NCBI GenBank assembly: GCA_033764955.1
Contig: JANRIL010000046.1
Span: forward strand, 24,486-88,485
From: Cyanobacteriota bacterium
GTDB lineage: Bacteria > Cyanobacteriota > Cyanobacteriia > Thermostichales > Thermostichaceae
Reading direction: 5' to 3'
DNA: 64,000 nucleotides
Below, in pieces: positions 1-45,308 of this stretch. Within the stretch, counting starts at the first letter, position 1; the number at the start of each line of letters is the position of its first letter. Under the pieces are notes generated by a model. The model did not search any database and was not told where the DNA came from. It was given only the letters and a program-made list of their open reading frames with translations. The translations under genes were made by a program, and so were the position numbers.

Positions 1-48
1 CAAAATCTGGCGACGGCTGAACCCTGCTGCCAATAAACGTCTGGACAT
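1..48 (-). CDS. N-terminus of a probable Tat-exported ABC substrate-binding (BMP-type) protein, truncated by the window edge
   Basis: ATG at 48 reads MSRRLLAAGFSRRQIL (twin-arginine motif). GAGGA RBS upstream; lies downstream of an ABC permease. Confidence 0.45.
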   Translation of the reverse strand, partial: MSRRLLAAGFSRRQIL

Positions 49-121
49 GACATGTTCCTCAATACGGGACAATCAACGCAACATTCTGGACTAAAGACCG
101 GAGCGAGCCAGCATGAGGTCA

Positions 122-1069
122 TCAGCCCGTGCTGCCAAAGACCCCTTTCAACCCCTGGGGCATCCCCCCCCGTTGGGCCGTGGCCGAACTGACAACCAAC
201 ACCGCCAGCGACAAGAGGTAGGGCAGTGTGGCCAAGAGATAGGACGACACCTCCACCCCCATCGATTGCAGCCGCAGGTACAACGCCTCGGATCCACCAA
301 ACAGTAGGGCTGCCGGACAGGCCCAAAAGGGATTCCAGCGGGCCACGATCACCAAGCCCACCGCCACCAGACCTCGTCCAGCGGTCATGTTTTCCGCCCA
401 GGTGAGGGTATAGTCCACCGACAGCGCTGCCCCACCCAGGCCTGAGAGCAAACCCCCGATGCCGATACCCTGCATCTGCACCCACCAGGGTCGGATCCCC
501 ATGCTGCGGGAAGCCGGAATCGATTCCCCTACCGCCCGCCAGATCAATCCCGTGTGGGTGCCATAGACCAAGACCCCGATGACGGGCACCAGCAGCAGCG
601 ACAGCAGGATAGTCGGGGTCAACTCCCCCACCACCGCGCCCAATCCACTGATCTTTTGCCCCACGTAGGCTCGCCCCCAGTAGGCACTGAGGCCGGATCC
701 CAGCACCCACACCGCGACACCGCTGGCGATGGCATTGGTGCGTAAACCCACGCAGAGCAGCATGTGCAAGCTCGACAGGGCCAGCCCGGCCAGGGATCCC
801 GCCAGCAAGCCCAGCCAGGGGTTTTGGCTGATCACCGTGACGGCAAAACCAACGCAGGCCCCCAGCAGCATTTGCCCTTCCACCCCCAAATTGATCACCC
901 CCGTCAGTTGGGTCAGGGTTTCCCCCACCACCACAAACAGAATGGGAGAGGCACTACGCAGCGTGGCCCACAACCAACCGGAGGTCATCTCTGGGGGAGC
1001 ACTGACCAGTAGGGCGACCGCTACCACCAGAACGACCCCCAGGGAGCGCCACCGCCTCCGAAACGGCAT
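122..1069 (-). CDS. ABC transporter permease (nucleoside/purine type)
   Basis: GVINLGVEGQMLLGA, RAVGE and GRGLVAVGLV motifs; highly hydrophobic. Start placed at ATG 1069; the ORF track extends to 1300. Confidence 0.85.
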   Translation of the reverse strand: MPFRRRWRSLGVVLVVAVALLVSAPPEMTSGWLWATLRSASPILFVVVGETLTQLTGVINLGVEGQMLLGACVGFAVTVISQNPWLGLLAGSLAGLALSSLHMLLCVGLRTNAIASGVAVWVLGSGLSAYWGRAYVGQKISGLGAVVGELTPTILLSLLLVPVIGVLVYGTHTGLIWRAVGESIPASRSMGIRPWWVQMQGIGIGGLLSGLGGAALSVDYTLTWAENMTAGRGLVAVGLVIVARWNPFWACPAALLFGGSEALYLRLQSMGVEVSSYLLATLPYLLSLAVLVVSSATAQRGGMPQGLKGVFGSTG

Positions 1070-1164
1070 TAACGATGGGATCACGAAGGCCGCTCCTACG
1101 CCCAGGGAATGTCCCAGCATCTTAGGGATCCCGCCGGAAAACATCCGTAGCTGGCGATACACAA

Positions 1165-1182
1165 TATAGGATATATCCTGTA
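1165..1182. promoter_or_regulatory. Palindromic operator candidate for the GntR regulator
   Basis: Perfect palindrome AGGATATATCCT (1168-1179) between the divergent permease and GntR genes. Confidence 0.5.
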
Positions 1183-1243
1183 GGCGATTTGCATTTCCCC
1201 ATCCACAGCGGATGATGGAAGCATCGCTTCGCCGTATCCTCCC

Positions 1244-1918
1244 ATGACTGCTGTCAAACCTGTGCTTGCTTCCTTGGCCGGGATCCCGCGCACCACCCAA
1301 GCCACCGTCACCGAGCAGTTGCGGCGAGCTATTTTATCGGGGGCATTGCCAGGGGGATCCCGACTGACCCAGGCGGAACTGGCCAACGCCTTTCAGGTCA
1401 GCATTACCCCAGTGCGCGAGGCCCTACGCGAACTGAGCACCCAAGGGTTGATCGAGCTGGATGCCTTTCGCTGTGCGGTTGTCCATACACCGACATTGAA
1501 AGAACTGGAAGAAATTTATGAACTGCGGCAGGTGTTGATTCCCTACACCGTGGAGCATGGGATCGCCAAAATCTCACCGGAGGAACTCCGGCAAGCCGAG
1601 ACGCTGCTGACCACCATGGAGCGGGAAACGGATCAATCGCTGTGGGTGGATCTGAATCGCCAATTTCACAATCTCCTGGAGCAGGCCGTGGACAACTCCC
1701 ATGTGCAAGCCACCCTGCGCCGCCTCTCCGATTTTTCGGCAATTTACGTCAATTTGTCCTTTGCCAAGCAACCCCTGCAAAAGGAAGACTCGGAGCGGGA
1801 ACACCGTCAAATCCTGCAAGCCTATCAGGATCGGGATCCCGTGTTGGCCACCCAATTAACCTTGGCTCACGTCAGCGCTACATTGGTGGCCGCGAGACAG
1901 GTATTTAGGCAGGAGTAA
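1244..1918 (+). CDS. GntR family (FadR/FCD) transcriptional regulator
   Basis: wHTH motif LRRAILSG..PG.RL...ELA..F.VS.TPVREAL; FCD C-terminus with NRQFH and EH..I motifs. Confidence 0.92.
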   Translation: MTAVKPVLASLAGIPRTTQATVTEQLRRAILSGALPGGSRLTQAELANAFQVSITPVREALRELSTQGLIELDAFRCAVVHTPTLKELEEIYELRQVLIPYTVEHGIAKISPEELRQAETLLTTMERETDQSLWVDLNRQFHNLLEQAVDNSHVQATLRRLSDFSAIYVNLSFAKQPLQKEDSEREHRQILQAYQDRDPVLATQLTLAHVSATLVAARQVFRQE

Positions 1919-1991
1919 GGTGTCTCGTCAATTCAATGCCCTCATGGCCAGCAGTGATAGCTCACCCTTTTAAGCAGATTGTTAGGCTTGC

Positions 1992-3101
1992 ATGGAGAAA
2001 TTTGGTGCTATGGAAATAGAAGGTTTAAAAGCGCTGAACGTTTTCGTTGATTCATCAATATTTATCGGCAAAAACTACAGATATGAGCACCCTTCGTTTG
2101 TTGCTCTCAAGGATGCTGTATCGGCAGGGCGAGCCAATTTGCTGATTACGGATATAACCATAGAGGAAGTGAAGGCGCATATAGATAACGATGTTAGCGA
2201 GTCTTCGCAAGCTCTTAAGAAAGTTCATGGTGGGGTAAAGATTCTTAGAAACATTGCTAAGCTAAGTGATTCAGCCATATTCAATGATATTGATCGCGCA
2301 TCCGTCGGTGAGGAGCTTTATAAGCAGTTTGAACAGTTTTTGACAGATGCCAGGACAGTCATCGTTTCAGTATCGGAGGCCAACACGCGGTCTGTCTTTG
2401 ATTGCTACTTCAAGCGTGCTGCGCCATTTGGCGAAGGAAAAAAGAAGAGCGATTTTCCTGATGCATTTGCATTATCGGCATTGAACGAATGGGCGGAATC
2501 AGAGCAGGAGGATGTATTCGTTGTAAGCCAAGATTCAGACATGAATGGAATCGAAGTCGATTTTCCGTGTTTGTCAGCACTTAGCTCACTGGAAGAGTTT
2601 CTGGGCAAAGTTACTTCATACTTTGAGGAACTCGCTCCGCTAGCTCAGCAGTTGTTGGAAGACAATTTTGGCCAAATTGCGGATATTCTTGAAGAAAGAT
2701 TTCAGTGGCTTGGCTTCGTATTGGCGGATCAAGATGGTGATGTGAATGAAACTAGAGTCACTGAGGTCGGAGAGATTTCTGCCTACCTGATTTCGCTAAC
2801 CCCCGGCTCAAATGGCGAGCCAGCAGAAGCGCGATTTGAGTTGACTACAACCATCGCATATGAAGCGGACGTGTCATATGACAACCTAGAAACGGCGAGT
2901 TATGATAGCGAGGATAAGGTGTTTATCCCTTGGGAGACTGTCGAGCAAACAGTTGAAAGCTCTGAAATAGTTCAGGCTAACCTAAGATTTACGTTTAATA
3001 TGACCGAACCTCGCAATCAAGAAATTAAAGAACTGGATTTGCACACGCCAACGGACGTTTCGGTTTCTACGGAAGAAAACGATGGCTGGCCTTACAAGTA
3101 A
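1992..3101 (+). CDS. PIN-domain protein (DUF4935-like) with acidic C-terminus; cassette 1
   Basis: N-terminal VFVDSSIF, PF...KK..FPDAF and VSQDSD PIN acidic motifs. Confidence 0.7.
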   Translation: MEKFGAMEIEGLKALNVFVDSSIFIGKNYRYEHPSFVALKDAVSAGRANLLITDITIEEVKAHIDNDVSESSQALKKVHGGVKILRNIAKLSDSAIFNDIDRASVGEELYKQFEQFLTDARTVIVSVSEANTRSVFDCYFKRAAPFGEGKKKSDFPDAFALSALNEWAESEQEDVFVVSQDSDMNGIEVDFPCLSALSSLEEFLGKVTSYFEELAPLAQQLLEDNFGQIADILEERFQWLGFVLADQDGDVNETRVTEVGEISAYLISLTPGSNGEPAEARFELTTTIAYEADVSYDNLETASYDSEDKVFIPWETVEQTVESSEIVQANLRFTFNMTEPRNQEIKELDLHTPTDVSVSTEENDGWPYK

Positions 3102-3104
3102 TTG

Positions 3105-3176
3105 GCTTAACACGGCACTGCACCTGACCGCTTTTCCACTACGCTCCAAAGCGGCAGGTGAGTTTAGTCGTTGGGC
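3105..3176 (+). other. attC site 1
   Basis: GCTTAAC...GTTGGGC. Inner arms ACT(G)CACCTG(A)CCGCTTT / AAAGCGGCAGGTGAGT with two unpaired extrahelical bases; 72 bp. Confidence 0.9.
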
Positions 3177-3197
3177 TGCTTCGGGAATTGAAGAGTT

Positions 3198-4574
3198 ATG
3201 AGCTTAAAGAAAATAGAGCTAAAGGGGTTGCGAGGATTCGCAACAGTCCAATATCTAGAATTTGCTATTCCTAATGGGGATCCCGGAAGTGGAATTACTA
3301 CCTTAGTAGGACCTAATAATGGAGGGAAATCCACTGTAATTGAAGCAATCCGTGCATTATCGCTAAGGGACCCACCTAGCTTTACTGTAGGCAAACGAAA
3401 CCAGAAAGCGGGAGATCGAGTTAAAATAACCGTCTTCAATGAGTTAGCGCAAACCAAAGAACTGTGCACTATTGATGCGGGTGGTAGCGAAACTCACTGG
3501 GTTGTTAACAATGATCCCCTTCCCCCTGGAAGTGTATTCGTTTTGCCATCAAGACGCTACTTTAATCCCCTCTTTGGTAAAGCTTCCTCCGAACGGCAGT
3601 CCTACATTATTTCGTACGGTCTACCACAAACACGAGGCTCTGTAATTGACCACTTCGCTTCTAGGTTGTTTCAAGTTCAAAAGAATCGAACTGCGTTCGA
3701 TTCTGTCTTAGGTAAAGTGTTAAGCCCCGTACCTAATTGGACAATTGACCAATCAGATGGAGGTCAGTATTTTCTCAAGTTCGATTTTGGGGGTTTCTAT
3801 CATAACAGTGACGGACTTGGAGAAGGTCTTGTTAGCTTATTCTTTATAATTGACGCTTTATATGATTCCAAGCCCAATGACATAATCGTCATTGATGAGC
3901 CTGAGCTTTCTTTACATCCGTCTTTTCAAAGGAAACTCGCCTCCTTGCTTGTTGATTATGCTTCAAACAGGCAGATTATTATTGCTACTCATTCACCCTA
4001 TTTTGTTGATTTTCATGCAATAACTAATGGGGCAAAAATTGCCCGTATATATTCCGATGATTTCAATTCCACTATAAGAATGCTCAGTGAAGATTCTGTT
4101 AGTAGGATCAAAGGCTTTCTAAATAACTCATTTAATCCACACGTTCTTGGGCTTGATGCCCGCGAAGTGTTCTTTCTTGAAGAAAGAATAATTCTTGTGG
4201 AAGGTCAAGAAGATGTGGTTTTCTACAAGGATATTTCTTCTCAGTTGGATAAACAGCTTAATGGTAATTTCTTTGGCTGGGGTGTTGGAGGAGCGCATAA
4301 CATGGAAATAATAGCTGCCTTATTACAAGATTTAGGGTTTAAGAAGGTCGTCGGGATTCTAGATGAAGATAAAAAAGAGTTGATACCAGAATTAAAAGGG
4401 AAGTTCCCTGATTACAATTTCTTCAACATTCCTGCAAAAGATGTTCGTACTAAGCCTGCAATTGCTGCGAAAGACTCTGTCATAGGTTTGATTGATAAGT
4501 CGGGGGTGCTTAAACTTGAGTATAAAGATGAGGTTAATGGACTGTTCGATCAAATTAACGCTAAACTTGCATAA
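3198..4574 (+). CDS. ABC-ATPase + TOPRIM (OLD-family-like) ATP-dependent nuclease; cassette 2
   Basis: Walker A GPNNGGKST, Walker B IVIDEPELSLHP, H-loop ATHS, TOPRIM LVEGQED and GILDED. Confidence 0.8.
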   Translation: MSLKKIELKGLRGFATVQYLEFAIPNGDPGSGITTLVGPNNGGKSTVIEAIRALSLRDPPSFTVGKRNQKAGDRVKITVFNELAQTKELCTIDAGGSETHWVVNNDPLPPGSVFVLPSRRYFNPLFGKASSERQSYIISYGLPQTRGSVIDHFASRLFQVQKNRTAFDSVLGKVLSPVPNWTIDQSDGGQYFLKFDFGGFYHNSDGLGEGLVSLFFIIDALYDSKPNDIIVIDEPELSLHPSFQRKLASLLVDYASNRQIIIATHSPYFVDFHAITNGAKIARIYSDDFNSTIRMLSEDSVSRIKGFLNNSFNPHVLGLDAREVFFLEERIILVEGQEDVVFYKDISSQLDKQLNGNFFGWGVGGAHNMEIIAALLQDLGFKKVVGILDEDKKELIPELKGKFPDYNFFNIPAKDVRTKPAIAAKDSVIGLIDKSGVLKLEYKDEVNGLFDQINAKLA

Positions 4575-4579
4575 GCACA

Positions 4580-4666
4580 GCCCAACAACCCTGGTGACGC
4601 GGACTCGCAAGATTGATCTACTATAGCGGCACGTGGCTTTGGAGCTGCTGACCAAGACCGTTAGCC
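4580..4666 (+). other. attC site 2
   Basis: GCCCAAC (exact complement of GTTGGGC at the cassette start)...GTTAGCC; 87 bp with imperfect inner arms. Confidence 0.8.
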
Positions 4667-4678
4667 CAGAAGAGACGC

Positions 4679-5458
4679 ATGATTGAATCGTTGCCGACTT
4701 CGTGGCGGGACTTGCAAGAGCGAGTTGCCCGAATTCTCAACGAGTGTGGCATCGATACTTCCGTCGAGAAGCAAGTCACCCTGGCGCGAGGTAGAGCCAA
4801 AATAGATGTCTGGGCTTATGATGCTTCATCTGTGCCTCCGCAGACCTACATAATCGAGTGCAAGCGATGGTTCGAACCCGTGCCTCAAACGGTTGTCCAC
4901 GCATTTCGCAGCGTTGTCGGAGACTGCGGCGCTAATTGGGGTGCTATCGTGTCGTGCAACGGTTTCCAAAGCGGTGCTTACGAGGCGGCCCAATACTCCA
5001 ACGTACGGCTTCTCACTTGGTATGACTTTCTTGCTCTGTTTGAAACGGCGTGGTTCGATCGCTATTTCTGCCGCATCGTTGCCGAAGCGTCAGAGCCCCT
5101 CATCGAGTACACCGAGACGATCAATTCTCGCATCTTCCGAAAGGCGGATCTTCTCTCAAAAGGGCAACACGAGGAGTTCAAACGTCTTCGCTCTGTCCAC
5201 TTTTCTCTCGCTGCCATCTGCATGATGATGCGGGTGCAGGCAAATGGGGCTCTGCGTCTCGTTCGTGGCGACCATGATTCCATCATGCTCGATATCCCCT
5301 TGCGCCAAGGTATGCGAGGGGCAGCCTCGGAACTACTTGGTACGTTACCCAATTCAATCCTCGATGCCGACTCGTACCGAATTCTGCTGTCTGCGATAAT
5401 CGAAGAGGTAGAGAATGCCATCGCGTCGTTTGATCATCTGTTCGGCGAAAGGGCGTAA
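4679..5458 (+). CDS. Restriction endonuclease-like protein (Mrr_cat, PD-(D/E)XK); cassette 3
   Basis: W..LQ..VA.IL...G, KIDVW...IIECK and GFQSGA motifs. Confidence 0.8.
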   Translation: MIESLPTSWRDLQERVARILNECGIDTSVEKQVTLARGRAKIDVWAYDASSVPPQTYIIECKRWFEPVPQTVVHAFRSVVGDCGANWGAIVSCNGFQSGAYEAAQYSNVRLLTWYDFLALFETAWFDRYFCRIVAEASEPLIEYTETINSRIFRKADLLSKGQHEEFKRLRSVHFSLAAICMMMRVQANGALRLVRGDHDSIMLDIPLRQGMRGAASELLGTLPNSILDADSYRILLSAIIEEVENAIASFDHLFGERA

Positions 5459-5462
5459 AAGG

Positions 5463-5551
5463 GGCTAACCAAGCGTTGGAGCAGACTCGCGATAGCGTCC
5501 TGCGGTATGGTGAGGTTGTTGGCTGTTAGCTGCTGAGCTTTTTCGTTAACC
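5463..5551 (+). other. attC site 3
   Basis: GGCTAAC (exact complement of GTTAGCC at the cassette start)...GTTAACC; 89 bp. Shares GACTCGC and AGCTGCTGA with attC 2. Confidence 0.8.
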
Positions 5552-5567
5552 CTTACGATCTAAAACA

Positions 5568-5681
5568 GTGCTCAACGCCTTACGGCATCACAGGCAAAAG
5601 CACGCATCTAGGTACAGACAGACATAACATAAATAGTGGAGCGGCCTGCTCAACCCCTAAGGGCATTGGCAGACCCAAAGA
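5568..5681 (-). CRISPR. Orphan CRISPR mini-array, type I-B-like repeat (1 full repeat, 42-nt spacer, 1 degenerate repeat)
   Basis: The minus strand at 5603-5568 reads GTGCTTTTGCCTGTGATGCCGTAAGGCGTTGAGCAC (36 nt, GCC-GTAA-GGC hairpin, TTGAGCAC handle). A degenerate copy ATGCCCTTAGGGGTTGAGCAG ends at 5646. No cas genes in the window. Confidence 0.7.
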
Positions 5682-5933
5682 TATTAGGGATAAGAAACCA
5701 GCCGTTTTCTCAAACAAACTATGCCTGACTCCCTGGGAGGGTACCAGCCAAGCGGTCCCTTGAAGGGATAGCCCCCACGCTCGTGATAGATTTTGATGAT
5801 TGAGCAACTTCATAGGGAAGATCCGCTGGCTAAAGTCCGGTTTACGTTTAGCAGGGATAGGAACTTTAGTTTGCTTTCCAGCCATCTCAATATCATCTAA
5901 ATCCCCCGATCTAAACAAATTAAGCCAATCGCT

Positions 5934-6551
5934 TTGGATACTTTCCCAAACATGCTTAAGACCGATCGCTCTTGCCTGAGCCTGCTCCGCTGTTGTCGAT
6001 GGTTAGTCTGTTGGGGACTGATTCTTGGTTTGACCGGCTTAGCATGGGAAATCAACCTGGGTCGCCCAGCCCATGCCCAGCCCCCTCCGGTTGAAGCCGC
6101 AGCAAGGCAGGTCATTAGTCGAGAAGAGGCGGAGCAACGGCTAGCGGTGATTGCTCAGGCAATGGAGTCGATTCGGTTGTGTAACCGCCCTGGCTGTCGC
6201 TTTTTGCAAATTAATAGCCAGGTTCATCCCCAGGATGCTGAGCAACCCTCCCCCATCTACACAGGCGAGATCAACGCCATCATCGATCGCCCCGCCGCTA
6301 CCCTCGACAAAGCCCATTACCAGCTTGAATTTCGGGAGGGGCGCTGGCGTCTGTTGGGTGGAGAGGAGCTATCGGATGTTTCCTCCTTCTTTTTTGACGG
6401 AGATGAATATGAAGTATTTAGTTCCTACAGTGGGCGTACCCGCATCGAAAAGCTGCAAAACGCCAGTCCAAATCTTCGCATTGGCTATGGAGCACTCTAC
6501 TTTCAAATCATGCAGGCGGGGGTGGAAAAGCTCGCTCCCGACCCCTCCTAA
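5934..6551 (+). CDS. Hypothetical exported protein
   Basis: 205-aa ORF with a hydrophobic signal-like segment ending PAHA. Confidence 0.6.
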   Translation: MDTFPNMLKTDRSCLSLLRCCRWLVCWGLILGLTGLAWEINLGRPAHAQPPPVEAAARQVISREEAEQRLAVIAQAMESIRLCNRPGCRFLQINSQVHPQDAEQPSPIYTGEINAIIDRPAATLDKAHYQLEFREGRWRLLGGEELSDVSSFFFDGDEYEVFSSYSGRTRIEKLQNASPNLRIGYGALYFQIMQAGVEKLAPDPS

Positions 6552-6592
6552 GGAATGACCAACTCACGGGCGGGATCCCCTTTCCACCCAAA

Positions 6593-7567
6593 TTAGGCAG
6601 GAATTCGCCCTCCTCCCATCAAATAAAGCAAAGCCATGCGGATCGCCACCCCATCGGTGACTTGCTGATCAATCAAGCTCACGCCAGGATCTTCCATCAA
6701 GTCAGAGGTAATTTCCACACCGCGATTCACCGGCCCCGGATGGAGCAATTTGACATCGGGATGACATCCAGCCAAGCGCTCCCGATTCAGTCCGTAGAGG
6801 TGATGATAGTCCCGCAGGCTAGGCAAGAGGTGCTGTTGCATCCGTTCTTGCTGCAACCGCAGCGCCATGACAAAACGTGCCCCTTCTAGAGCCGTTTGGA
6901 GTTGCCAGTGAATGGAGATCCCCCACTCCGCAAAAGTTGAGGGTAGGAGGGTGGGGGGACCTGCTAGGTGGAGATCAGCTCCCAGCGTTTTCAGACACCA
7001 GATGTTGGATCGGGCAACCCGCGAATGCAAAATATCGCCGACGATGGCAATTTTGACCCCCCGCAGTAGAGTGGGATCCGGTTGCTGGGGATTGAGGTGG
7101 CTGCATAAGGTAAACATATCCAACAGACCTTGGGTGGGATGTTCGTGTTGTCCATCCCCCGCATTCAACACCCCGGCGGGGGATCCCTTCCGTTCCACCT
7201 CCTGGGCCATCTGTATGGGCACGCCCGCTTGGGCATGGCGCACCACCAAAATATCGGTTCCCATCGCCAAAAAAGTGCGGGTGGTATCGAGGATGGTTTC
7301 GCCTTTGCTGAGGGAGGAGGTGCCAGGGGCAAAGTTTAAGACATCCGCCGACAGTCGTTTAGCGGCCAATTCAAAGCTGTTGCGGGTACGGGTGGAGGCT
7401 TCAAAAAATAAGTTGGCGACCACTTTGCCCTGTAGGGTAGGAACTTTGGGCAACCGCCGCGACAGGACTTCCCGAAAGCTAGCCGCCGTTTGCACCACTA
7501 TTTCATATTCGCTGGGGGTAAAGTCTGCTAACCCCAACACATGCCGCCGATGCCAAGCCACCGCCAT
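6593..7567 (-). CDS. pyrB: Aspartate carbamoyltransferase catalytic subunit
   Basis: [20 protein letters not shown] and HPGPVNRG motifs. Confidence 0.97.
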
Positions 7568-7699: not shown

Positions 7700-9256
7700 T
7701 CAATCGGCTACTGGCTCACACGTCTGCACAATGGCGGCCACGAGGGCTTCTAGGGTGTAGGGATCCGCCACAATATCCACCCGCCCCCAGAGGTTTTCAC
7801 AGGTTTCGGCGGTTTTAGGGCCAATCGCGGCGATTTTGGGCTTTTTCATCCATGCCCAGGGATCCCCATCTGCTGCTGCCTGTTGCAATAACTGCCAAAA
7901 GTGGGAAACGGTCTTGGAACTGGCAAAGGTGAGGATGTCAATCTGCTCTTGCTGTAATGCCCAGATCACCGGCGGGTCGGCTTGCGTAGGACATTGGGAC
8001 TGATAAGCGGCTACTTCACAAACCTCTGCTCCTAAGGCTTGCCATGCCTGAACGAGGGTTTCTCGTCCACCTGATTCCACCCGTGGAAAGAGAATGGTTT
8101 GCTGGTGGGGGTTGGGTAAAGCGGTGACCAGAGCATCCGCTACAAATTCATGGGGGATTACGTCTGCGCGCAATCCATATTCAGCCAGGGTGGCGGCGGT
8201 TTTGGTTCCTACCACCATAATCTTTAGCCCTGCCAGGGCACGGCTATCTCGTTGATGATGGTGCAGCCGCTCAAAGAAGTAGCGGACGGCATTGGCGGAG
8301 GTGAGGCAAAGCCAGGTAAAACGAGGCAGGTGGAGAATCGCCTGATCTAAAGGACGCCAATCACTGGGGGGAACGATCTCTAGAGTGGGCATTTCCAGAA
8401 CCCGTGCCCCTTGGCTGTGGAGGAGATTTCGCAGGGGAGAACTTTGGCTGTCGGCGCGGGTGACTAAAACCGTCTTACCCCTGAGGGGCAGGGTAGGGGG
8501 TGGGGGCGGCAGATGGGGCTGGAGGGTGGGGCGAAAGTTGACTACGGATCCCACCACAATCACACTGGGGGGCTGGAGGGAAGTGGGCGGGTGGTGCAGG
8601 GATCCGATCTCCACCTGTTGTTGGGGGGATCCGGCCTGGCCAATCACCGCCACCGGACAATCAAGAGGTTTGCCTGCTTGCCGCAGTTTTTGACAGAGGG
8701 AAGGCAAGGGTTGGGATCCCATCAGGATGACCAGAGTATCCAGGCTAGCCAGTTCGGCCCACGGCAGTAGGTCGAGGTCATGGGCAGTCAAAACGGCAAA
8801 ACAACGGCTGAGGGTTTTGTGGGTGAGGGGAATGCCCGCCAAAAGGGGAGCGGTCAACGCCGATGAGAGTCCTGGCAGGATCTCAAACGCACACCCCGCC
8901 GCCTGCAACGCCGCCACTTCTTCTAGGGCACGGCCAAAGATCAAAGGATCCCCCGCTTTCAGCCGCACCACCTGCTGCCCCGCTCGATAACGTTCAATCA
9001 TCTGGGCATGGATATCCGCCTGCACCACCGGCGCGGGGATAGGGGATCCCGCTCGTTTGCCGACGCGGATCACTTGAGCCTTGGGGGGAAGGCTAGCCAC
9101 CACCGATTCCTCCACTAGCGCATCCACGAAGACCACATCCGCTTGTTGCAAGACCCGCTGCCCCTGCACCGTCAGCGCATCTACTCCTCCCAAGCCTGCC
9201 CCCATCAGATAAATTTTGGGTGGTGGGGAGGGGGAAGTTGGCACGGCATCATCCAT
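7700..9256 (-). CDS. cobA/hemD: Uroporphyrinogen-III C-methyltransferase / uroporphyrinogen-III synthase fusion
   Basis: RLKAGDPLIFGR methyltransferase motif, then a HemD domain (LVTR, TSANAV, FASSKTV, IGPKTA). Confidence 0.92.
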   Translation of the reverse strand: MDDAVPTSPSPPPKIYLMGAGLGGVDALTVQGQRVLQQADVVFVDALVEESVVASLPPKAQVIRVGKRAGSPIPAPVVQADIHAQMIERYRAGQQVVRLKAGDPLIFGRALEEVAALQAAGCAFEILPGLSSALTAPLLAGIPLTHKTLSRCFAVLTAHDLDLLPWAELASLDTLVILMGSQPLPSLCQKLRQAGKPLDCPVAVIGQAGSPQQQVEIGSLHHPPTSLQPPSVIVVGSVVNFRPTLQPHLPPPPPTLPLRGKTVLVTRADSQSSPLRNLLHSQGARVLEMPTLEIVPPSDWRPLDQAILHLPRFTWLCLTSANAVRYFFERLHHHQRDSRALAGLKIMVVGTKTAATLAEYGLRADVIPHEFVADALVTALPNPHQQTILFPRVESGGRETLVQAWQALGAEVCEVAAYQSQCPTQADPPVIWALQQEQIDILTFASSKTVSHFWQLLQQAAADGDPWAWMKKPKIAAIGPKTAETCENLWGRVDIVADPYTLEALVAAIVQTCEPVAD

Positions 9257-44235: not shown

Positions 44236-44387
44236 TTGAGATAGAGAGCCTAACTCCCCTGTTGGTTCAGTCTTACTCTGAATTGTTGGGCAGCCAAATC
44301 GAGGACGATTGTTGATGGTGCCCTACCCCGAAAGAGGAAATTCAATTCGCCTTTTATCAGGGCAGTTGAAAACCACGGGTTCCGAGT

Positions 44388-45308
44388 TCAAGACTTTCTC
44401 GTACCGCTGAGTTCCACCGTTAGCCACTCGCGCAAATAACGATTGACCAAGGTGGGAGCTTCGTCCTGGGGGCAATGCCCTACCCCAGGTAGCTCGATAA
44501 ACGACTTCACGCTAGAAAATTGAGCTATTTGGCGTCCCTCTTCAATGGGTTCCCACGGATCCTCAGATCCCCAGAGTAGTAGAGCCGGACAGGACAGGCG
44601 GGGTAGTAGATCTTCCAAAAGCGGCCCTTGGGAATAGCGAATGAAGGCGAGAAAGACATCCGCCGCTCCCTCCTCTTGAGCCGGTTTGAGCAACAGTTGA
44701 ACCAATTCATCGGTGACCGTTTGAGGATCCCCATAGGCTTGCTCCAGAATCTGGCGGATTACCTTAGGTTGAGCCAACTGCCGAAAAAACCAGTGACCGA
44801 GCGGTTTCCAGGTTAGGAGGGTTTGGATGATGGGGGTGCTAAGACGGCGGTGCCATGCTAACTCGGCGCGTTTGCGTTCGTGTAGGAGGCGGAGTGAGGG
44901 ATTGAGGAGAGCCACCCCGACCACCCCATCGGGATCCGTGACGGCTGCCTGGAGAGCGACAATGCCGCCGATTGAGTTACCCGCCAGATAGGTGGGTTCT
45001 CCGATGATGTGATGACAAAAATCAATCACCTGTGCTGCCCAGGTTTCAAACGTGTAGGGGATCCCCTGCGGGTGAGAGGGATCGGCGGGGGTGGGCTTAG
45101 CGGATCCTCCAAAGCCCAGCAAATCGATGGCGAACACCCGATGGTTTTGCCCCAATACCGCCAGATTATGCCGCCAGTGATCGCTGCTGGCTCCAAATCC
45201 ATGAATTAACAAGAGAGGGGATCCCTGCTCCCCTGCCCGTTGGTAACGAACGGGAAATCCCTGCCACGACCAGATGTGGTGGGTAACCGCAATATGCTCA
45301 GCAATCAT
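44388..45308 (-). CDS. Alpha/beta fold hydrolase
   Basis: LIHGFGAS, GNSIGG and GHCPQDE motifs. Confidence 0.9.
   Translation of the reverse strand: MIAEHIAVTHHIWSWQGFPVRYQRAGEQGSPLLLIHGFGASSDHWRHNLAVLGQNHRVFAIDLLGFGGSAKPTPADPSHPQGIPYTFETWAAQVIDFCHHIIGEPTYLAGNSIGGIVALQAAVTDPDGVVGVALLNPSLRLLHERKRAELAWHRRLSTPIIQTLLTWKPLGHWFFRQLAQPKVIRQILEQAYGDPQTVTDELVQLLLKPAQEEGAADVFLAFIRYSQGPLLEDLLPRLSCPALLLWGSEDPWEPIEEGRQIAQFSSVKSFIELPGVGHCPQDEAPTLVNRYLREWLTVELSGTRKS

Follow-up and report, generated by a model that had tools for sequence, protein, structure and literature searches.

How did integron cassettes come to lie 22 nucleotides (nt) from a CRISPR (clustered regularly interspaced short palindromic repeats) repeat in a cyanobacterium of the Thermostichaceae? 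We analysed 64,000 nt of the assembly GCA_033764955.1 (contig JANRIL010000046.1, positions 24,486 to 88,485), called the window throughout; its contig is C34 in our numbering, and none of the other genomes compared belongs to the genus of its source genome. Window stretch 1982-5545 consists of three integron cassettes, which lie between gntR and a CRISPR remnant. The original prediction for this DNA held that the cassettes had been inserted inside a CRISPR spacer. We find another reading probable: the cassettes form an attC site cluster that lacks an integron integrase (CALIN), which arose when an integron integrase (IntI) inserted them at an attG-type G|TT site downstream of gntR, beside an orphan CRISPR remnant.

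Three attC sites delimit three cassettes

At position 1981 the G+C content, about 0.55 before it, falls to 0.38-0.46. In this low-G+C DNA are three co-oriented open reading frames (ORFs), each followed by a 70-90 nt element bounded by RYYYAAC and GTTRRRY. We searched the 64 kb with a covariance model of attC (model R1, not to be confused with the CRISPR repeat R1 below), which was built from 20 aligned attC sites, all of them from contigs other than the window's, and run unfiltered on both strands. The R''/R' and L''/L' pairing of the model was written by hand and has covariation behind it, with paired bases in 85.8% of cells and a covariation score of 0.322; shuffles gave 0.116, and none of 500 reached the observed value. 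Exactly three significant matches were obtained in the window, all on the plus strand; no other lay below E=0.8, the next best being at E 0.86.

3098-3183, plus strand: attC1 (covariance model 32.9 bits, E 4.4e-6)
4573-4673, plus strand: attC2 (covariance model 35.5 bits, E 9.9e-7)
5456-5558, plus strand: attC3 (covariance model 27.4 bits, E 1.2e-4)

Each site begins 3 to 7 nt past the stop codon of a plus-strand ORF. All three have the inverse core sites R'' (RYYYAAC) and R' (GTTRRRY) and fit the covariation-supported structure model, with the R''/R' pairs GCTTAAC/GTTGGGC (attC1), GCCCAAC/GTTAGCC (attC2) and GGCTAAC/GTTAACC (attC3). The R' boxes are GTTGGGC at 3170-3176, GTTAGCC at 4660-4666 and GTTAACC at 5545-5551, and the last two are off RRR at one position. 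The integron cassette array that had been predicted here is real, its three attC sites being recovered by a model built from other contigs. The cassettes are as follows.

1982-3170, plus strand: cassette 1, with attC1 (R'' 3105-3111, R' 3170-3176) and a PIN_12 ORF
3171-4660, plus strand: cassette 2, with attC2 (R'' 4580-4586, R' 4660-4666) and an OLD-like ATPase ORF
4661-5545, plus strand: cassette 3, with attC3 (R'' 5463-5469, R' 5545-5551) and an Mrr_cat ORF

The G+C content of cassettes 1, 2 and 3 is about 0.45, 0.38-0.45 and 0.53. These differences argue for separate origins of the cassettes. Elsewhere in the window a weak attC-like element was observed at 44345-44432 (plus strand; covariance model E 3.6, nhmmer E 0.079), which may be a decayed single attC.

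Host DNA meets the cassettes at a G|TT crossover

1244-1918, plus strand: gntR-family regulator (GntR helix-turn-helix and FCD domains; Pfam FCD E 5.9e-19, GntR E 1.2e-14), the left host flank; stop codon TAA at 1916-1918
1919-1981, plus strand: host DNA left of the crossover, ending ...CAGATTG, with G1981 as the final base before the cassettes (read from the sequence)

The crossover points are G3170|TT, G4660|TT and G5545|TT, and the left boundary of the array is G1981|TTAGGC. At the two junctions with host DNA the sequence reads ...GATTG|TTAGGC (left) and ...TTTCG|TTAACC (right), so that both have the 5'-G|WT-3' crossover in host DNA that defines attG. An independent copy of cassette 1 was found in a metagenome-assembled genome of Desulfobacteraceae (locus L070). 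Its similarity to the window starts exactly at TGTTAGGC and ends at CGTTGGG, and its PIN_12 homologue has 75% amino-acid (aa) identity to the cassette 1 product. Since this similarity starts and ends at the cassette edges, the cassette boundaries are fixed and not a matter of interpretation. The recurrence of the PIN_12 cassette in Desulfobacteraceae also makes it common to different phyla. The copy itself (L070:3980-5150) agrees with cassette 1 in its GTTAGGC start and in its R''/R' ends but has a much shorter attC; it sits amid co-oriented ORFs with a further attC-like site at 8920-9005 (E 1.2e-4). We found no paralogues of the cassettes elsewhere in the genome.

Intact integrases are encoded elsewhere in the genome

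In a complete integron intI is adjacent to the array; here the gene to the left of the cassettes is gntR. A whole-genome search with TIGR02249 returned nine matches, which include two intact integron integrases above the curated cut-off (C9:19-960 and C38:63588-64529) and several intI fragments on other contigs. The same search detected no integron integrase or pseudogene on C34. The attI regions of C9 and C38 share the palindrome TACGGAAAnTTTCCGTATA right before TAG|TTAG, and attC-bearing cassettes then follow, with at least seven attC in the C9 array (C9:1-8000) and at least four in the C38 array (C38:53000-64600). We found no match to TACGGAAAnTTTCCGTATA anywhere in the window with up to 3 mismatches, and 1919-1981 holds neither an attC by the covariance model nor an attI motif. 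An attI-like junction, which had been offered as another account of the 38 nt that excision of the cassettes would rejoin, was rejected on the absence of this palindrome. A third, degenerate copy of the palindrome (3 mismatches) was observed at C11:37538-37558, close to attC sites (C11:33775-36617). We detected no full intI in that place, which may hold a decayed third integron.

Across the genome the covariance model gave 75 attC matches, and nhmmer gave 73 in 48 clusters, 35 of them singletons. This dispersed pattern fits what is expected from secondary-site insertion. Such an attC load is unusually dispersed for a 3.8-Mb cyanobacterium. Integron integrases above the cut-off occur in 20 of 41 clade genomes, and integrons in Cyanobacteria have been noted previously (PMC4889954).

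The cluster could instead be the leftover of a complete integron, or a rearranged fragment of the genome's own arrays, from which intI and attI were lost and to which no secondary-site insertion contributed. CALINs can come from intI loss or rearrangement according to PMC4889954, the other contigs do hold several intI fragments, and this region is rearranged in the relative G014, whose similarity to the window breaks off at 1441, within gntR. C34, however, has no TIGR02249 match and the window has no attI motif. Moreover, the junction of host DNA and cassette is precisely the G|TT at which the L070 similarity starts, and a random deletion endpoint would rarely fall there. We therefore consider such a leftover very unlikely.

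The cluster resembles known CALINs and attG insertions

The term CALIN was defined in PMC4889954 (2016), which also proposed a secondary-site origin for such clusters. With three sites where a CALIN has at least two attC within 4 kb, the cluster is like the CALINs of that study: its three attC are co-oriented, one ORF precedes each and no integrase lies on the contig. As in about half of the CALINs described there, IntI is encoded elsewhere in the genome. It is unlike usual CALINs in that its left boundary is base-exact (G|TTAGGC against host DNA) and can be checked against an independent cassette copy. Insertion at attG sites, with the consensus 5'-GWT-3', has been proposed as the origin of small CALINs and of single attC sites lacking an integron integrase (SALINs) (10.1101/2022.09.11.507474). 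The present locus is similar in its G|TT crossover, in having no attI-like structure and in the many single or small attC clusters of the genome. That work used IntI1-3 in E. coli, whereas here the integrases are cyanobacterial and the event is reconstructed, and the CRGM motif of the E. coli attG hotspots is absent at this site.

From these features we infer an insertion route and an order of events. One of the genome's own integron integrases would excise cassettes as circles, and an attC R' (G|TT) would then recombine with GTTAACC, a sequence resembling a core site in the intergenic DNA, 63 nt downstream of gntR. The outcome of such a secondary attG-type insertion would be a left joint reading ...CAGATTG|TTAGGC and a right joint with the hybrid R' G|TTAACC. 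By the mechanism of integron recombination, 5546-5567 would be the right half of the original target (G|TTAACC...). The cassettes may have been added singly by attC x attC exchange, or jointly as a multi-cassette circle. The cassette genes would probably be expressed by transcription running on from gntR, as the stretch from gntR to cassette 1 has no predicted terminator. The scan behind this prediction was little informative, with promoter-like sites fewer than in shuffles. The CRISPR remnant and the cassettes would be neighbours in a variable intergenic region.

An orphan CRISPR remnant lies to the right of the cassettes

5546-5567, plus strand: 22-nt gap between the last crossover and the CRISPR repeat (sequence reading)
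5568-5603, minus strand: orphan CRISPR repeat R1 of an I-B/MYXAN-linked family (family hidden Markov model (HMM) 30.4 bits)
5604-5645, no strand: 42-nt spacer-like stretch, so named from its position between R1 and R2
5646-5681, minus strand: R2, a second and degenerate repeat (agreeing with R1 at 17 of its first 21 positions)

R1, a 36-nt repeat that is unique within the window, starts 22 nt past G5545. Its first 23 nt are identical to array repeats in 8 related genomes, and in such genomes the family, which is widespread in cyanobacteria, builds arrays with spacers of 33-40 nt, the largest having 61 repeats. Elsewhere in the source genome R1 occurs only at C42:1-36, with 4/36 mismatches. That copy lies at the contig edge by a leader-like stretch, after which come cas2, a cas4-cas1 fusion, cas5, cas7, cas8, cas3, a Cmx6-type cas6 and a WYL regulator, an operon that NCBIfam names type I-MYXAN/I-B. 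The full 36-nt I-B-like repeat that had been predicted at 5568, 22 nt after the last crossover, is confirmed, its family being found in cas-linked arrays. The array on C42 is unassembled, since the contig end cuts it off. A HepT/nucleotidyltransferase toxin-antitoxin pair, a Uma2 endonuclease gene and a DUF5615 gene interrupt the cas operon on this contig (C42:1-12700, L046) and separate cas5 from cas4-cas1.

Against Rfam, R1 matched CRISPR-DR33 on the minus strand with 32 bits, less than the 39 bits set for gathering. In the orientation that reads GTGCTCAAC, cas genes and leader are on the right-hand side in 5/5 cas-linked arrays, and the cassettes accordingly face the trailer side of the remnant. 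By analogy with these arrays, the transcribed strand of R1 is probably the minus strand.

R2, which the original prediction did not include, has an alignment score of 11 (P about 1.4e-4 per 44-mer) and 3.0 bits with the family HMM, a value equalled by 0.28% of random 91-mers. The R1-R2 spacing of 42 nt is slightly over the 33-40 nt of the family. For the 42-nt stretch the best phage match had E=2, which is at chance level, viral contigs gave no exact match, and the genome has no second copy. We found no cas genes on C34 by tblastn with six Cas proteins from C42, and the window flanks showed no similarity to the C42 leader or to the array flanks of relatives. The remnant is like the I-B/MYXAN-linked arrays of this genome and its relatives in being identical at 23 conserved repeat positions. 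It is unlike them in having one intact and one degenerate repeat, no cas on the contig, no leader similarity and no protospacer.

The repeats might also have arrived together with the cassettes, either as a truncated fourth cassette or as a mini-array or solitary-repeat decoy borne on a mobile genetic element (MGE) and directed at the host I-B system. Mini-arrays and solitary repeat units occur on mobile elements. The G+C content is 0.48-0.50 from 5550 to about 6000, and such low values, together with the 4 positions at which R1 differs from the genome's cas-linked repeat, would agree with a foreign source; low G+C is, however, ordinary over a 250-nt intergenic stretch. There is no attC past the repeats on either strand. 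Arrays and orphan repeats of the R1 family at 10 other loci (33 kb) likewise gave 0 attC matches, and an orphan mini-array like this one, again with a degenerate repeat, occurs in the relative G001 in a locus that has no cassettes. We regard joint arrival as highly improbable. The G001 mini-array (L030, G001:C1:879000-881500) is of the same family and consists of one truncated terminal repeat, two intact repeats and one degenerate leader-side repeat, a layout like that of the window's remnant, with no attC nearby.

The left candidate repeat is indistinguishable from chance

1930-1965, plus strand: left repeat candidate of the original prediction, indistinguishable from chance

The original prediction derived the locus from an ancestral repeat-spacer-repeat-spacer-repeat. 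In the form weighed here, IntI would have used the GTTAACC within a 38-nt, trailer-most spacer of an I-B/MYXAN array, the cassettes would be nested there and the outer left repeat would since have decayed. Several features agree with it. R1 is genuine and only 22 nt from the crossover, and the arithmetic is correct, the 16 nt on the left and the 22 nt on the right summing to 38 nt, a length within the 33-40 nt that spacers of this repeat family have. The candidate retains TCAAnGCC...GGC at 1933-1948, GCC/GGC stem included, and the cassettes lie on the trailer side, where degenerate terminal repeats occur.

The left candidate itself, however, was at chance in three tests (alignment, 44-mer sampling and nhmmer profile). 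The best R1 alignment within 1920-1975 scores 3, which was equalled by 13.9% of 200,000 random genomic 56-mers and also reached by 13.2% of 20,000 shuffles. By sampling of about 300,000 random 44-mers its P was 0.074 per 44-mer, and it was outside the top 8 repeat-like peaks within 1800-6100. Scoring of the candidate against a profile of the repeats had been proposed along with it; nhmmer with an 18-variant family profile found no match in 1900-1990, while R1 gets 30.4 bits. There was no Rfam match to the candidate either. It is no better than shuffled sequence, and we rejected it as a genuine CRISPR repeat. The ancestral array loses its support with the left repeat, and a location inside a spacer is therefore unsupported. 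Instead of three or more regularly spaced repeats, the locus has an intact R1, a degenerate but significant R2 and a left candidate at chance.

Other observations also count against nesting. The trailer-end repeats of G008 and G001 are truncated by 8 nt yet otherwise perfect and unscrambled. R1 is undecayed at all 23 conserved positions, so heavy decay of an adjacent repeat would be unexpected. None of the relatives searched shows an array at the corresponding place. We consider nesting unlikely. What weight we leave to it, and the lesser weight left to joint arrival of repeats and cassettes, is kept because the 22-nt proximity is above chance by a rough estimate.

The flanks are not conserved together in relatives

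5934-6551, plus strand: right host flank, a 205-aa ORF of no known family (no Pfam match)
6593-7567, minus strand: pyrB, beyond the 205-aa ORF (OTCace domains)

When 40 relatives were searched at the DNA level, the matches to the window were limited to pyrB, a part of the 205-aa ORF, the CRISPR repeats and a block in G014. pyrB and the 205-aa ORF were both matched in relatives at unlinked places. Full-length matches to the GntR-family protein in the 40 relatives reached at best 51-52% identity, and G005 has only a C-terminal fragment of gntR, followed by an unrelated Uma2 gene. A metagenome scan with gntR gave 5 loci, all at 28-30% identity. Of the public sequencing runs, a single one gave a close match: a hot-spring metagenome (run X1, 6% of words), which holds a relative at 96-97% identity. 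Run X1 is uninformative on the insertion site, because its contigs end at window 1860 and do not cover 1861-6990.

A block that is 93-96% identical in G014 stops at window 1441, within gntR; matches to G014 over the rest of the window are scattered and have 65-80% identity. The block is at least 5.9 kb long (window 1-1441 and upstream to C34:20039; L049) and matches G014:C1:1462000-1467904, in another genus. Within it are genes for ABC-transporter permease and substrate-binding components, as well as the first third of gntR, a gene that is truncated in G014. From the alignment, the block looks like a recent inter-genus exchange.

The cassettes encode nuclease- and ATPase-family proteins

1992-3101, plus strand: cassette 1 ORF (PIN_12 E 2.5e-28; C-terminal ~180 aa of no known family)
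3198-4574, plus strand: cassette 2 ORF, encoding an ABC-type ATPase (AAA_21 93.6 bits, E 3.1e-26; AAA_15 84.1 bits, E 1.9e-23)
4679-5458, plus strand: cassette 3 ORF (Mrr_cat, PD-(D/E)XK, E 4.2e-13; C-terminal ~140 aa of no known family)

The true start of the cassette 1 ORF is probably at 2010, since PIN_12 homologues are mostly 361-363 aa. The cassette 2 protein matched the PADLOC models AriA (E 3.8e-26), Old (E 5.8e-20) and GajA (E 3.9e-17), and its OLD-like_TOPRIM match was borderline (22.7 bits against a cut-off of 23.2). No NCBIfam model matched this protein at cut-off. From their families we infer a defence function: the three products are plausibly stand-alone anti-phage or anti-MGE nucleases.

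Defence genes in integron cassettes have already been reported (10.1101/2024.07.02.601686, 10.1101/2024.07.02.601719). Like the cassettes of those reports, the present ones are single-gene and appear, from their domain matches, to encode compact, defence-associated nuclease/ATPase families (OLD/AriA-like, Mrr-like, PIN). The reports concern Vibrio-type sedentary and mobile integrons, whereas the present case is a cyanobacterial CALIN. The original prediction also held that defence genes were stacked at a GTT site used as a secondary landing pad. The G|TT crossover with no attI or intI nearby and the nuclease-type, defence-like genes agree with this; the placing of the landing pad in a spacer is unsupported.

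Discussion

Our data point to insertion of the cassettes by an integron integrase at a G|TT site downstream of gntR as the probable origin of this CALIN. Several observations weigh against that account. The cassette boundary is 22 nt from R1, which is the genome's only orphan repeat of its family, a coincidence on the order of 1e-3 a priori by a rough estimate that was not computed. A proximity so unlikely by pure chance makes some link between cassettes and CRISPR possible. The window attC sites score 27-35 bits against mostly 40-99 bits at the genome's other sites. As isolated DNA strands attC2 and attC3 fold no better than shuffles (z +1.1 to -1.0), and only attC1 folds clearly, its hairpin at -15 kcal/mol; attC2 and attC3 may be decaying. 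Two rounds of a sequence-only HMM seeded from four integrase-linked attC found dozens of sites genome-wide and none in the window. The window sites were also missed by regular-expression and fold-filter scans, which were over-strict, and were recovered by the structure (covariance) model only. No empty-site allele or conspecific genome was found among 40 relatives, in the metagenome scan or in run X1, and the pre-insertion sequence is therefore a reconstruction. Lastly, PADLOC gave no significant match for the PIN_12 protein or the Mrr protein, and the putative defence role of the cassette genes is read from their family membership.

The original prediction further saw two acquisition systems sharing one locus. 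The cassettes do adjoin a cas-less two-repeat remnant, but nothing beyond adjacency holds, and the evidence supports adjacency to a dead CRISPR remnant only. Among the matches listed in a literature search on attC, integrons, CRISPR arrays and cyanobacteria, no title or abstract opening describes a cassette array within a CRISPR array, which is no proof of absence. Nesting, if true, would be cross-talk between integrons and CRISPR arrays, and a first example in nature in which one adaptive acquisition system had inserted into another's memory bank.

As we read it, the locus is a clean natural example of an existing idea: the step from host DNA to cassette falls exactly at G|TT, and the genome has two intact integrases along with about 75 attC sites scattered over it. 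It fits the proposal that small CALINs and single attC come from integrase insertion outside attI. It would also extend to this cyanobacterium the observation that defence genes travel as integron cassettes.

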